A stretch of DNA of 64,000 nt, from sequence record OK254198.1; one strand, given 5' to 3'. How positions within the stretch are numbered: the first letter of the stretch is position 1; every line of letters starts with the position of its first letter. The DNA is from Escherichia phage PSD2001. The notes under the pieces were generated by a model. It saw only the letters and a list, made by a program, of their open reading frames with translations, made no database searches and was not told the origin of the DNA. Of this stretch, positions 2,632 through 18,847 are shown piece after piece. The position numbers were made by a program, and so were the translations under genes.

Positions 2632-3255
2632 TTACATAAACTTAAAGAATTCTTTAAGCCCCTTAATTACATGGACAGAATGCGCTCCACACTCGCAAGA
2701 GATAGGAATAGCCATTTGGACCTGTGGCTTGAGAAGTTCTTCCGTTAGTGCATTTATATCATCGAGGGTAATTGCATTGTACAGGTCTTCGATTTCGGCT
2801 TCATTTAAGTCATCAACAACGATGCGCTCACCGCCTTCCGTGATAATATATTCGATACAACAAGCAATCATTTTTCCTTTATCGCCATCTTCAAACAGAC
2901 CAGGATAACGGAATTTAATTTTAAACGCCCCGAAATCACGAATAACTTCAGACTCATCCACGATGCTTGCGCGACTTATAGTCACAGGAATATCTTGTTC
3001 CTTTCCGCACTCACATACCCATGTATGCTCGACGTTAACAGCTCCGAGACTATTTGCCCAGAGATTAATAAGAAGCAGCTCGGCTTCCTGTTTGTTTAAC
3101 CCTTTAGCATCAGTGCATTTATTAAGCAGTTCAATTATTGCAGGTTCCATACGCTTTTCTAATTTTGCCTGAAGCAAATCTTTGTATTCGCGCAATGTAA
3201 AAGCCCTACAATTTATAGTTTTATTTTTAATTTGGACAATAAATTCATAAGTCAT
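2632..3255 (-). CDS. 26: baseplate hub protein gp26
   Basis: Position between 25 and 51; track ORF trimmed to MTYEF start with GGAG RBS, giving ~207 aa (T4 gp26 ~208 aa). Confidence 0.7.
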   Translation of the reverse strand: MTYEFIVQIKNKTINCRAFTLREYKDLLQAKLEKRMEPAIIELLNKCTDAKGLNKQEAELLLINLWANSLGAVNVEHTWVCECGKEQDIPVTISRASIVDESEVIRDFGAFKIKFRYPGLFEDGDKGKMIACCIEYIITEGGERIVVDDLNEAEIEDLYNAITLDDINALTEELLKPQVQMAIPISCECGAHSVHVIKGLKEFFKFM

Positions 3256-3272
3256 AATTTGCTCCTTTACTG

Positions 3273-3284
3273 TATTTATAAATA
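3273..3284. promoter_or_regulatory. palindromic bidirectional late promoter TATTTATAAATA
   Basis: The 12-mer is its own reverse complement and gives TATAAATA on both strands, ~24 nt before the gp51 ATG and ~18 nt before the trimmed gp26 ATG. Confidence 0.55.
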
Positions 3285-3308
3285 TCAATAAAGATAAAAG
3301 GGGATTCT

Positions 3309-4061
3309 ATGGCCAATATCGTAAGATGTGAAATGCCAGACGGAGTTCATCGTTTCAAACCGTTTACAGTCGCTGATTACCGTGATTTACTGCTTGTGCG
3401 AAACGACATGAACAACAAACCCGTCGAAGAACAAAAACAATTATTAGACGAACTGTTGGAAGATTATTTTGGAGAATATCCAAAAGCATGGAGGCCTTAC
3501 ATATTCCTGAAGGTATTCACTTCCTCTATCGGTAAGACAAAAGTCCCGGTAGCGTTTGAATGTCAAAAATGTAAAAAGACAAAGCAGACTTTGTTTAACA
3601 TGAATCAGGGTCCATTAGTAAATCCAACGATGGAAACCGCCGGGATAAAAATACAATTTAAGTTCCCTGAAGTGGAATATAAAGATAAGTCAGAGCTTGT
3701 CTTGAATACCATCCAGACTGTCGAAGACTCGGAACAAAAATACAATTGGGAAGACCTTCCTGAAGAAACAAAGATGCAGGTTATCGATGCAATTGATATA
3801 GAGAGCCTCGAAGCACTCCTTAAGAAAATGCATTCGGTTTATATTCCATTTACATATGGCTGTTGTGAAAAGCACAAAACCGAATACACTGACCTGCTTG
3901 ACGTCTTTAAGCTTATCCTTAACCCGGATGAAGTCTTTGTATTTTATCAAATTAACCACTTGCTGGTAAAGAATCAATATTCGCTGGATAGCATCATGCA
4001 TATGATTCCTATTGAACGAGGTATTGCTTTATCACTAGTTGAGAAGGACTTGAAAAAATGA
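3309..4061 (+). CDS. 51: baseplate hub assembly protein gp51
   Basis: 250 aa, synteny, ATG confirmed. Confidence 0.8.
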
Positions 4062-13860: not shown

Positions 13861-13890
13861 AAAAAAGGGCCGAAGCCCTTTTGTTATTTT
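13861..13890 (-). terminator. intrinsic terminator after ligase
   Basis: Hairpin GGGC-cgaa-GCCC followed by a T-run on the minus strand. Confidence 0.6.
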
Positions 13891-15425
13891 AATCCAGTCT
13901 TTGACCAGTCGCCAAATACATCTTCGAATGTGTCTGCATGGTCTTTATCGAAACGGAACCCTTTGATAATCGGCAGGAACAATGCAACCGTATTATCTTT
14001 ACGAGTCTCGGAAGTCAACCAACCATTACATTCACAGTCAGCAATCATTCCAACCAATTCACCTTTACGAGCTTTAACCATTAAGGCTTCACGGTCCATT
14101 TCATGACGCTCATCAATCGGAATAGAAACCCATTTTTTGGTTTTCTTATCTTTAACTTGAGTTGTGTCTTTAAAACCAGAACCACAGTTATTTCTAATCT
14201 TACCACAAGAAGAACGAAGCACAACACCGCCAATCTTATTCGGGTCTTTATCGTGCTCGTAATATTCAATGATTTCCATTGCAATGTCAATTACTTCTTT
14301 GAACTTATACAGGTTCTTTGAGCGCTTGTTTTCCCAAATCGATGCCATGTTCTTAAGGATAATACCTTCAAGACCTTCATCCACATATTTCTTATAGATA
14401 ACCTTCGCTTCATCGAGATTGTTAACAACATGGTTTTCAATCAGAATCATGCGGTCGAAACCATGTAGCACCACGTTATCTGCAATCATCTTTTCCAGAA
14501 CAGCAAAACGCACATCATATTTCAACGGATTGAGAATCTTAACATCAGAATAGACTTCAATCAGTGGAACATAATCCCAAACCTGGAATTTCATGCAAGA
14601 AGCTTCTGTTGCAGAAATAGTTCCTTTTAATGATTTGTTTGCCAGACCATTTGAAAAGGTTCTTGATTCTGCGAATTCCGCGAATTCTTTTGCCTTACTA
14701 AGCTCAGGCATATCGTCAAAAAGGAAGCCCAAACCGTCATTCTGGGGAGCTACTTTCTGTTCATGGTATACTAACTCGCCGTCAATCAAAACGCCCTCAG
14801 GATGTCTCTCACGCGCTTCACGGGTAGCTTCAATCAATTCCTTTTTAAGGAGGTCAAGCTTGAGGTATTCGTTGCCAGCTCGGGATAACAATCGAACATC
14901 ATCCAACTCATCGCCACGAACTTCTGCAAAACACCGAGCGCCGTCGGCTTTCAATTGCGCAAAGGCCGGGAACTTAATGTTCTTGGCAATACCGGCTTCA
15001 TCATAGGAAGAAGCGAGCATCTGTGGTTGTTCAGGAATTAAACCTTTCCAAACCTTATTCGCAATTGATACGGATGCCCCGCATTCCAGGTCACGCATCA
15101 TCACACGGCGAAGAACTTCAACATCAGCCTTTTTACCATCTGCAATATAGCCAGATAATTCCTCGATTGCAGCATTACCTGTCAATTTGCGAGAGGCCAA
15201 TGTGAATTCGATAAAGTCAAGCATATCATCGATATTCAGCATACCAAAGCTTTGTGTCGTTGCCCCAGGTTTAGGCCATTTCTTAATATAGAACTGGATG
15301 CCTTTGGAATATGTCAAACGATACACGCGTTTAAGGGTTTCATTGTCAGAATACGATTCCAGGATAGCTTGTTTCTCTTTAGTGGAATCGGTTGCAGCAA
15401 TTTCATTTAAAATATCTAAAATCAT
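13884..15425 (-). CDS. 30: ATP-dependent DNA ligase gp30
   Basis: KADGARC adenylation motif; strong similarity to remembered T4 ligase; track start is GTG, trimmed to ATG MILDILNEIA. Confidence 0.9.
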   Translation of the reverse strand: MILDILNEIAATDSTKEKQAILESYSDNETLKRVYRLTYSKGIQFYIKKWPKPGATTQSFGMLNIDDMLDFIEFTLASRKLTGNAAIEELSGYIADGKKADVEVLRRVMMRDLECGASVSIANKVWKGLIPEQPQMLASSYDEAGIAKNIKFPAFAQLKADGARCFAEVRGDELDDVRLLSRAGNEYLKLDLLKKELIEATREARERHPEGVLIDGELVYHEQKVAPQNDGLGFLFDDMPELSKAKEFAEFAESRTFSNGLANKSLKGTISATEASCMKFQVWDYVPLIEVYSDVKILNPLKYDVRFAVLEKMIADNVVLHGFDRMILIENHVVNNLDEAKVIYKKYVDEGLEGIILKNMASIWENKRSKNLYKFKEVIDIAMEIIEYYEHDKDPNKIGGVVLRSSCGKIRNNCGSGFKDTTQVKDKKTKKWVSIPIDERHEMDREALMVKARKGELVGMIADCECNGWLTSETRKDNTVALFLPIIKGFRFDKDHADTFEDVFGDWSKTGLK

Positions 15426-15434
15426 AATCACCTC

Positions 15435-15716
15435 TTAGTCGTTGGCTCTATTATATGCCACATCTTCCAAAAGCAAATCCAGGCGTTTGTGATAAGTGAA
15501 CACAAATTTAGTCGCTCCATCTGGTTTCATTTTAGTCATGAAGTGAACATAGATAAATCCTTGCTCAACACATTCACGCCAAACCGGATGGTCTTTGGCC
15601 GGATTAATATCAAACGAGTAATCATGATTCACATGACGAATAAACTGATTAACATGGCCATAATCCATGGTAGTAGTAGGACCGTAATCAGAAATAGTAT
15701 GAACGACAAACATCAA
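15435..15716 (-). CDS. hypothetical protein (30.1 position)
   Basis: 93 aa track ORF, synteny only. Confidence 0.5.
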   Translation of the reverse strand: MMFVVHTISDYGPTTTMDYGHVNQFIRHVNHDYSFDINPAKDHPVWRECVEQGFIYVHFMTKMKPDGATKFVFTYHKRLDLLLEDVAYNRAND

Positions 15717-16528
15717 TTACCCCCTTGGCCGCCAGTCGGTTGATTGTACCAATATTCAATGCCAGTACCTACGCGTGGACCATATTGATATGGATACGCT
15801 GGATTATATCCAGGAGTCCATGGTTGTCCAGGGCGCCAGCCTTGTTGCAGAAGACGACGAGTTTCACGAAACAGCTCGCCCAGTTTACGGAGTTCATCAG
15901 GGGTGTATTCTGGCTTGACCGGTTCATCTTTGTGTTTCAGTTTAAGCTGTCCAGCAACATCGTCCCAGTTAAAAACTTTGGAAGCTGTTTTAGGAATAGC
16001 ATCACGTTCACCACGAGCCATCCAATAAACCGGGACTTCAAGGATTTCACTCGCATGGTCGCAATGGTGTGCAAGGTCATCAATATAACAAACGACATTA
16101 TATTTGTCTTTTGCCTTCTGAAATAACTCTTCTTTAGAGGCTGTATGACCACACATCATCACTTCTTTAAACGCCCCAGGGAACAAAGCATTCAGGTTGA
16201 ATTGACGATTCAGGCGAGCATCAATAGAATCACCCAGGGCTGTAACAGCCACAAAATCATATTGCTCTTTGAGGTTATTAATAACCCTTAACGCATCTGT
16301 GTAAGGAGACAAATAGCGAATAAAATCTGAACAGTTATATTTTTCAATTAACTGTGCACCCAACTCTTCATCGCAATTGAACAGTTTACCAGGGGTCACA
16401 AATTTTTCATCCTGAATCATTTTAAGGATATGTTCCAGGGGTAAATTATATTTTTGGGCGAAATAAGGCAAGCCAGACTGCCATGACAAACATACGCCAT
16501 CAATATCTGTTAAAATAACGGGTTTCAT
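15713..16528 (-). CDS. HAD-superfamily phosphatase-like protein with Pro/Gly/Tyr-rich tail
   Basis: N-terminal DIDGV (HAD motif I), later YIDD; C-terminal ~45 aa low-complexity PGQPWTPGYNPAYPYQYGP...GGQGGN. Confidence 0.6.
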   Translation of the reverse strand: MKPVILTDIDGVCLSWQSGLPYFAQKYNLPLEHILKMIQDEKFVTPGKLFNCDEELGAQLIEKYNCSDFIRYLSPYTDALRVINNLKEQYDFVAVTALGDSIDARLNRQFNLNALFPGAFKEVMMCGHTASKEELFQKAKDKYNVVCYIDDLAHHCDHASEILEVPVYWMARGERDAIPKTASKVFNWDDVAGQLKLKHKDEPVKPEYTPDELRKLGELFRETRRLLQQGWRPGQPWTPGYNPAYPYQYGPRVGTGIEYWYNQPTGGQGGN

Positions 16529-16983
16529 AATGCATCTCTCAATTGGTTAAGTATGTCAATAAATTCTTGTTCAGTCAATATTGTATCATGAACAGTAAGG
16601 TGACTTGCCATCGAATGCTTTAAAACTTTGCCCTTTGTGGCTTGTAATGCGTCGCGGAATCCTTTGTTTTGGAGCGCTGCTTCAAAATATGCATTTGTAT
16701 ACAACTCTTTCCATGATGTAGAGTATCTTGAAAAGGGAATTCCAAGCCAGAAAAGCGTCCCACGGTCCGCAGCTCTTGCATAAGCTCTTCCACTTTGCTG
16801 GGCGGCCAATCCGGACATCCCAAATATACGTTTTTGTTGTTCATTATTTCTCACCTTGCACCCTTGGAGGAAGCCTTCAAGACCTCCAAACTGGATACCC
16901 TCCATAACAAAAGGCCATTTAGCAAAGTTACTTAATGCACATGACGGCCATGGGAAATTGCTTCTGATTTCTAACTCAGACAT
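16525..16983 (-). CDS. NADAR (YbiA/DUF1768)-like protein
   Basis: Track ORF 16525..17130 trimmed to MSELEIRS; ALSNFAKWPF...GLEGFLQGCK resembles the NADAR signature as I recall E. coli YbiA. Confidence 0.55.
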   Translation of the reverse strand: MSELEIRSNFPWPSCALSNFAKWPFVMEGIQFGGLEGFLQGCKVRNNEQQKRIFGMSGLAAQQSGRAYARAADRGTLFWLGIPFSRYSTSWKELYTNAYFEAALQNKGFRDALQATKGKVLKHSMASHLTVHDTILTEQEFIDILNQLRDAL

Positions 16984-17188
16984 CTTTGACACTGATAATC
17001 TTGGTTGCATACCACATGCCATGGTCTGGCAATCTTTCTTTAATTGACCGTCCGCGATATGTTTTTCGCATAACAACAGTTTTAATAGCATCTTCATCGC
17101 AAGCATATGGCGGTGATAAATCAATAACACGATAAGTCACTTCAACCATTTCCAAGCCAAACAGCTTTTTAAATAATTTCTTAATCAT
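16976..17188 (-). CDS. 70 aa protein, tandem paralog A
   Basis: MIKKLFKKLFGLEMVEVTYRVIDLSP...IISVKDV; clearly homologous to the next ORF. Confidence 0.55.
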   Translation of the reverse strand: MIKKLFKKLFGLEMVEVTYRVIDLSPPYACDEDAIKTVVMRKTYRGRSIKERLPDHGMWYATKIISVKDV

Positions 17189-18814: not shown

Positions 18815-18842
18815 AAAATAAAAAGGGACTCCGAAGAGTCCC
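18815..18842 (-). terminator. intrinsic terminator
   Basis: Hairpin GGGACTC-cgaa-GAGTCCC followed by a T-run on the minus strand. Confidence 0.65.
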
Positions 18843-18847
18843 TGAAC

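Follow-up and report, generated by a model that had tools for sequence, protein, structure and literature searches.

The DNA analyzed here, referred to as the window, is a 64,000-nucleotide (nt) stretch of Escherichia phage PSD2001 (OK254198.1), and all coordinates given below are window positions unless stated otherwise. Its minus strand carries two gp30.4-like genes followed in order by 30.3, 30.2, 30.1 (DUF3045), DNA ligase, an Alt paralog and Alt (Table 1). Here we consider the 30.3 gene, which by its sequence and position is the ortholog of T4 gene 30.3 (adfN), and which very probably counters the host defense system DarTG1 by removing ADP-ribose from guanine in phage DNA. An earlier note, made from the letters of the window, had proposed that positions 16525-16983 encode a NADAR-like protein, a candidate eraser of ADP-ribosylation or anti-DarT factor. 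An open reading frame (ORF) of 152 codons plus TGA is indeed present there, on the minus strand, a point on which the note was silent.

Identity of the 30.3 gene

Both stretches of the translation that had been quoted as NADAR-like were found in the product of this gene, ALSNFAKWPF...GLEGFLQGCK at residues 16-43 and KELYTNAYFEAALQNKGFRDALQATK at residues 92-117. In the ORF list, the frame starts mechanically with a GTG at 17130, giving a product of 201 amino acids (aa). Sequence comparison indicates that the true start is not this GTG but the ATG at 16983, because between the latter and the stop of the upstream 70-aa gene there is an 8-nt overlap, identical to that of T4 30.4/30.3, and because it yields the N-terminus MSELEIRSNF that the window protein has in common with its T4, T2 and RB69 relatives. 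At the other end, the adfN stop overlaps the gp30.2 ATG by 4 nt (ATGA at 16525-16528), the same as in T4. The two overlaps, together with the minus-strand order 30.4-30.3-30.2-30.1-30-alt, match T4 synteny.

The window protein matched PF08010 (Phage_30_3, 'Bacteriophage protein GP30.3') with E=5.7e-64 and 214.5 bits, against a gathering cut-off of 36 bits, over profile positions 2-138 of 138. This was its sole Pfam match (hmmscan, E<=10). In PHROGs it matched phrog_652, a family of unknown function, and a search of NCBIfam returned no match. Homologs were found by tblastn in 1510 phage records; as judged from these searches, the PF08010 match and the spread of homologs lie far beyond chance. 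Alignment with T4 gp30.3 (NP_049816) was gap-free over equal lengths, with 129 of 152 residues identical (85%), and none of the 23 substitutions falls at a position that is invariant in the family. The earlier note had allowed that T4 itself may lack the gene; T4 has it, as 30.3. Identity amounted to 95% for Gaprivervirus VR25 and ~85% for the T4/T2/T6 group, and reached 100% for a product of Escherichia phage 212 that is labelled 'hypothetical protein' in GenBank. The source phage is Gaprivervirus-like, not a Tequatrovirus, and the DNA is 95-96% identical to the T4-like coliphages TH44, TH54 and CJ20.

Within adfN there is an out-of-frame 74-aa ORF that corresponds in position to the 30.3' gene annotated in T4 and VR25. 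We rejected 30.3' as a real gene: although T4 and the window both keep the frame open, its product is only 61% identical between them, compared to 85% for the main frame. Thus, as far as the sequence goes, 30.3' bears no sign of separate selection or constraint.

NADAR fold and active site

Homologs were collected, and 58-59 diverse full-length members of the gp30.3 family were aligned. PF08719 (NADAR/DUF1768) was matched by 15 of 59 members, with a best E of 1.5e-7. The family profile found E. coli YbiA (PDB 2b3w) with E=0.007 over the SNFA...E..FQ..K motif, and hhalign of the family against YbiA, the sequence of which was taken from the E. coli MG1655 record, gave 93.2% probability and E=2.9e-7 across 97 columns (residues 16-122). 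An AlphaFold2 model of the window protein, built on the family alignment without the T4 sequence, had a mean predicted local distance difference test (pLDDT) value of 93.1 and a predicted template modeling score (pTM) of 0.88. When this confident model was compared with the PDB using Foldseek, the three solved NADARs took the top three places, namely 8bau (Phytophthora NADAR with ADP-ribose; 11.9), 2b3w (E. coli YbiA; 11.4) and 8bat (Geobacter lovleyi DarG1-type NADAR; 9.3); below them was only noise, led by the non-NADAR entry 5dn7 (4.4). The window protein displays the YbiA fold, an alpha-helical core flanked by two small beta-hairpins. Because of the family-level profile links to PF08719 and YbiA, a model that matches NADAR structures only, and conserved catalytic residues, the gp30.3 family, on this sequence and model evidence, clearly represents a phage branch of the NADAR superfamily. 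The window protein, which the earlier note had taken for NADAR-like, is a minimal, core-only member.

Catalysis by NADARs involves a Glu at the first position (PnNADAR E43, E. coli C7 DarG1 E88) and a Lys 7 residues after it at the second (PnNADAR K50, C7 DarG1 K95) (PMC11543638). The third position, on the last strand, differs between groups: YbiA-type and general NADARs have Glu there, DarG1 has Asp, and phage NADARs have His (PMC11125620, PMC11543638, PMC12945103). On alignment, the corresponding window residues E36, K43 and H123 proved conserved in 58/58, 55/58 and 58/58 family members, respectively, with R at the second position in 2/58. Both E36 and K43 align with the E and K of YbiA 'SEHYFQAQK' in the family profile and hhalign comparisons, and their spacing of 7 is that of the solved NADARs. 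H123 falls on YbiA E125 (...KLVEHTEND) by gap-free extension, one residue past the hhalign block.

The E36A and K43A substitutions and C-terminal truncation all impair T4 AdfN, and truncation abolishes its function (PMC11825919). A natural frameshift ends the RB69 allele at T137, removing the last 15 residues and with them the terminal helix. RB69 is sensitive to DarTG1 (PMC11825919) because of this frameshifted 30.3 that lacks the helix. The window allele is full length.

Neighboring genes

The earlier note had placed the gene directly downstream of the ligase. Instead, 30.3 is transcribed before the ligase, and 30.2 and 30.1 lie between them. The two Alt-type ADP-ribosyltransferase genes that it reported nearby are real, and form tandem full-length paralogs; the 624-aa copy is annotated as hypothetical in phage 212. 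By comparison, RB69 possesses one alt; T4 also has one, alongside alt.-1/alt.-2, which are remnants of a partial duplication. The gp30.4-like gene is likewise present as two tandem paralogs in the window, and as a single copy in VR25 and in phage 212, the AdfN of which is identical. Due to this tandem duplication, coverage of the region in a DNA search is only 89-92% for many close relatives.

The gp30.2 N-terminus, MKPVILTDIDGVCLSW, contains a HAD-type DxDGV motif (DIDGV). While gp30.2 belongs to no Pfam family, it weakly matched PHROG 415, the PNK phosphatase family (E=4.5e-4), and the 5'(3')-deoxyribonucleotidase 2jao (E=0.32). Conserved residues 1-190, which show 46% identity in an Acinetobacter phage, are followed by a variable C-terminal tail rich in Pro, Gly, Gln and Tyr. 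These features suggest that gp30.2 is probably an uncharacterized HAD-like phosphatase.

The location of the gene was compared in four other phages. In the distant T4-like phages phiR1-RT (Yersinia) and Aeromonas phage 25, the NADAR gene sits within a tRNA gene cluster, away from ligase and alt; 30.3 therefore moves independently of its T4 neighbors. In Rhizobium phage N34 the gp30.3-type gene adjoins a helicase. Only an Acinetobacter T4-like phage had the 30.3-30.2-ligase arrangement with a nearby ADP-ribosyltransferase gene. We consequently rejected the Alt/ligase/30.2 neighborhood as functional evidence, since phiR1-RT, Aeromonas phage 25 and Rhizobium phage N34 do not share it. In phiR1-RT (HE956709.1), the tblastn match to AdfN spans positions 3001-3438 of the locus compared (query residues 4-152), compared to 3136-3453 (105 aa) for the annotated gp30.3. 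Judged from this match, the annotated start is probably too far downstream, with loss of the catalytic Glu/Lys region.

Two strong GC-rich hairpins that resemble terminators, each with a T-run after it, were noted in the window, one between the ligase and the Alt paralog and the other downstream of the gp30.9-like region. From their sequence, transcription units of the cluster may end at these hairpins; the number of such hairpins, 8 found versus 5.4 expected from shuffling, was not clearly above expectation. A sigma-70 promoter scan of 13.5-20.5 kb returned 21 sites versus 19.9 expected, and no conclusion on promoters was drawn. A tblastn search of the 64-kb window for AdfA (T4 gp61.2), the other known anti-DarT1 factor, returned nothing better than E=2.5, so that AdfA is absent from it. 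Likewise, no DarT family member was found among 11 flanking proteins scanned against Pfam, the immediate neighbors being gp30.4-like and gp30.2.

Table 1. Features of the 30.3 region in the window.
Feature	Positions	Strand	Remarks
adfN (gene 30.3 ortholog), coding sequence including TGA	16525..16983	-	152 codons + TGA; from ORF and translation
E36 codon GAA, catalytic glutamate	16876..16878	-	corresponds to T4 AdfN E36, PnNADAR E43, C7 DarG1 E88
K43 codon AAG, phosphate-coordinating lysine	16855..16857	-	corresponds to T4 AdfN K43, PnNADAR K50, C7 DarG1 K95
H123 codon CAT, phage-NADAR-specific histidine	16615..16617	-	position of YbiA/PnNADAR E125, DarG1 D171
C-terminal alpha-helix, residues 138-152	16528..16572	-	alignment with RB69; helix 138-151 in AlphaFold2 model
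30.3' frame (out of frame, 74 aa)	16620-16844	-	inside adfN
gp30.4-like gene, 70 aa, upstream of adfN	16976..17188	-	PHROG 2042; stop overlaps adfN start by 8 nt
Second gp30.4 paralog, 70 aa	17198-17410	-	PHROG 2042
gp30.2 ortholog, 271 aa, HAD-like N-terminal domain	15713..16528	-	66% identical to T4 gp30.2; PHROG 420
30.1 (DUF3045)	15435-15716	-	
DNA ligase	13884-15431	-	separated from 30.3 by 30.2 and 30.1
Alt-type ADP-ribosyltransferase, 624 aa	11951-13825	-	PF03496
Alt-type ADP-ribosyltransferase, 686 aa	9881-11941	-	PF03496
Terminator-like hairpin	13863-13882		palindromic (AAAAGGGCCGAAGCCCTTTT)
Terminator-like hairpin	18824-18843	-	

Published work on T4 AdfN

Phage NADARs were reportedly catalogued bioinformatically by De Souza and Aravind before Iyer et al. 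did so. The 2022 listing by Iyer et al. was likewise bioinformatic (PMC9503650). Schuller et al. found that DarT1 guanine ADP-ribosylation is reversed by NADARs (PMC11543638), and Cihlova et al. found that T4 gp30.3 hydrolyzes guanine-linked, but not thymine-linked, ADP-ribose on DNA in vitro (PMC11125620). Johannesman et al. (Nat Commun 2025) traced the resistance of T2 and T4 against DarTG1 to gene 30.3, which was renamed adfN (PMC11825919). In that work, adfN was sufficient for RB69 rescue, phage deleted for adfN were sensitive to DarTG1, and purified AdfN stripped ADP-ribose from DarT1-modified DNA while failing to bind DarT1 (PMC11825919). AdfN was fully effective only in T-even infection, irrespective of cytosine modification, and full-length alleles in the T-even panel all correlated with resistance (PMC11825919). 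The T4 and T2 alleles have been shown to confer resistance to DarTG1 during infection (PMC11825919, bioRxiv 10.1101/2025.11.20.689424), and in a T4 transposon screen adfN insertions were lost on DarTG1 hosts only (bioRxiv 10.1101/2025.11.20.689424). The T4 phage NADAR also appears in a 2026 listing of enzymes acting on guanine-linked ADP-ribose (PMC12945103). The gene family, its fold, catalytic residues, substrate and role are thus already published (2022-2026), and are not new relative to T4.

Discussion

Orthology with T4 gene 30.3, the NADAR fold, intact catalytic residues and an intact C-terminal helix are established in this analysis. For the window allele, which carries 23 substitutions relative to T4, we infer the same activity. 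The role as an ADP-ribosylation eraser and anti-DarT factor that had been proposed from the sequence has been demonstrated for the 85%-identical T4 ortholog (PMC11825919, PMC11125620, bioRxiv 10.1101/2025.11.20.689424). Under the mechanism that we favor, the DarT1 toxin of a host DarTG1 system modifies phage DNA with ADP-ribose at guanine N2, which blocks replication. AdfN would then hydrolyze the N-glycosidic bond, with E36 and H123 surrounding the distal ribose and K43 contacting the diphosphate, so that ADP-ribose is released, unmodified guanine is restored and phage DNA replication may proceed. AdfN would in this way act as an 'orphan antitoxin', an enzymatic mimic of DarG1 that does not bind DarT1, in effect a stolen and stripped-down DarG1. 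The gene is predicted to be expressed from an early/middle minus-strand unit together with 30.4, 30.2, 30.1 and DNA ligase.

Several findings weigh against this interpretation. The window protein failed to match PF08719 directly (hmmscan, E<=10), a match that the earlier note had expected and in place of which PF08010 was found, and a single-sequence phmmer search of PDB sequences with it likewise returned no match. The window allele differs from T4 AdfN at 15% of residues. T4 gp30.3 does not rescue DarT1 toxicity in uninfected cells (PMC11125620), and T4 AdfN did not achieve full rescue of non-T-even phages (PMC11825919); the mechanism therefore depends on context. Finally, the T4 E36A and K43A mutants lost only part of their activity in vivo (PMC11825919).

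Whether T4-type AdfN needs another T-even protein was left open by Johannesman et al. (PMC11825919), and gp30.2, which is translationally coupled to AdfN, would be a candidate for such a partner. Tevenvirinae and an Acinetobacter T4-like phage retain the 30.3-30.2 pair, and the two genes have a similar genus-level spread (1510 versus 1438 phage records). Against this role, 30.3 and 30.2 are non-adjacent in phiR1-RT and Aeromonas phage 25, both are widespread in Straboviridae, their co-occurrence across genomes is not discriminating, and the text of the transposon screen reports adfN while 30.2 goes unmentioned (bioRxiv 10.1101/2025.11.20.689424). We therefore regard gp30.2 as a very doubtful partner.

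Three other accounts of the gene were weighed. Iyer et al. proposed in 2022 that proteins of this kind mainly degrade soluble ADP-ribose-derived molecules, such as immune signals or RNA-repair by-products, and not DNA adducts, arguing from genomic context and co-occurrence with Macro, SLOG and Nudix domains (PMC9503650). The placement of 30.3 among tRNA genes in phiR1-RT and Aeromonas phage 25 is compatible with an RNA-repair link, and NADARs also remove guanine-linked ADP-ribose from RNA in vitro (PMC12945103). However, no soluble substrate has been demonstrated for the phage NADAR family, and later data on T4 gp30.3 revealed both hydrolysis of guanine-linked ADP-ribose on DNA and a clean, DarTG1-specific phenotype (PMC11825919, PMC11125620, bioRxiv 10.1101/2025.11.20.689424). 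In light of these data, soluble signals are very unlikely to be the main substrate; the proposal has been superseded, with a side activity possible. A role in reversing or tuning the protein or RNA ADP-ribosylation carried out by the phage itself (through Alt and its paralog, ModA/ModB) is harder still to credit. Two Alt-type genes (PF03496) do lie 2.7-6.6 kb from adfN on the same strand, the Acinetobacter T4-like phage has 30.3, 30.2, ligase and an ADP-ribosyltransferase gene close together, and Iyer et al. remarked on co-expression with such transferases in T4-like phages (PMC9503650). Nevertheless, characterized NADARs act on base-linked (N-glycosidic) ADP-ribose on guanine or cytidine, not on arginine-linked ADP-ribose (PMC11543638, PMC12945103), the neighborhood is not conserved in the three phages named above, and adfN is dispensable where the host lacks DarTG1 (bioRxiv 10.1101/2025.11.20.689424). 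The argument from proximity to Alt made in the earlier note is thus not supported, the tested substrate being guanine-linked ADP-ribose on DNA and not Alt-type protein ADP-ribosylation.

The third account concerns the allele rather than the family. With 23 substitutions relative to T4, the window protein might be inactive, or tuned to another DarT1 variant, and hence give no protection against the model E. coli C7 DarTG1; AdfA alleles are specific to DarT variants (PMC11825919), and RB69 illustrates that natural 30.3 alleles can be defective. In contrast, the window allele retains every catalytic and family-invariant residue as well as the C-terminal helix, its AlphaFold2 model is confident throughout, and full-length alleles of the T-even panel all tracked with resistance (PMC11825919). 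Moreover, sequence variation in DarT should matter little, because AdfN acts on the DNA adduct and not on the toxin. An inactive or retargeted allele accordingly seems a slim possibility, and one that finds no support in the sequence.

Taken together, these considerations favor AdfN-mediated removal of guanine-linked ADP-ribose from phage DNA. This ORF and its many orthologs labelled 'hypothetical protein' can accordingly be named AdfN (anti-DarT factor, NADAR-family DNA ADP-ribosylglycohydrolase), and the source phage, bearing an intact adfN allele, is predicted to be resistant to DarTG1.

Comparison with known systems

The closest counterpart is T4 gp30.3 (AdfN) itself, with which the window gene shares its flanking genes, overlapping start and stop codons, E36, K43, H123 and an identical C-terminal helix. 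Unlike T4, the window phage has a duplicated upstream 30.4. RB69 carries the same gene at the same position, the product of which is 85% identical to the window protein over the shared 137 residues, and differs in its frameshift.

More distant are the DarG1 proteins (the BC4488 family; G. lovleyi 8bat and the E. coli C7 NADAR), which are 219-234 aa long and have an N-terminal extension that forms an electropositive channel. In contrast, window AdfN has 152 aa and comprises the core only, with 129 residues aligning to the 219-aa 8bat chain, and where DarG1 has Asp at the third catalytic position it has His123. DarG1 is encoded beside darT1 and neutralizes DarT1 in uninfected cells, while T4 AdfN does not neutralize it there. 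Window AdfN is neither adjacent to a darT1 nor endowed with the third-position Asp and N-terminal extension of DarG1. E. coli YbiA (2b3w, PF08719) is ~20% identical, with Glu125 where the phage protein has His123. It is encoded by a chromosomal gene of the LexA regulon, and has been linked to N-glycosidase activity on riboflavin intermediates and to swarming, not to counter-defense (PMC11125620).

In its proposed function, window AdfN is comparable to other phage ADP-ribosylglycohydrolases of the orphan-antitoxin type that counter DarTG, namely AdfN-Bas32 (T5-like), AdfN-Bas60 (Vequintavirinae) and AdfM (the T4 Tk.4 macrodomain). The Bas32 and Bas60 NADARs belong to other NADAR branches and are active without T-even infection (PMC11825919), while AdfM, a macrodomain, counters the ADP-ribosylation of thymine that DarT2 carries out (bioRxiv 10.1101/2025.11.20.689424).
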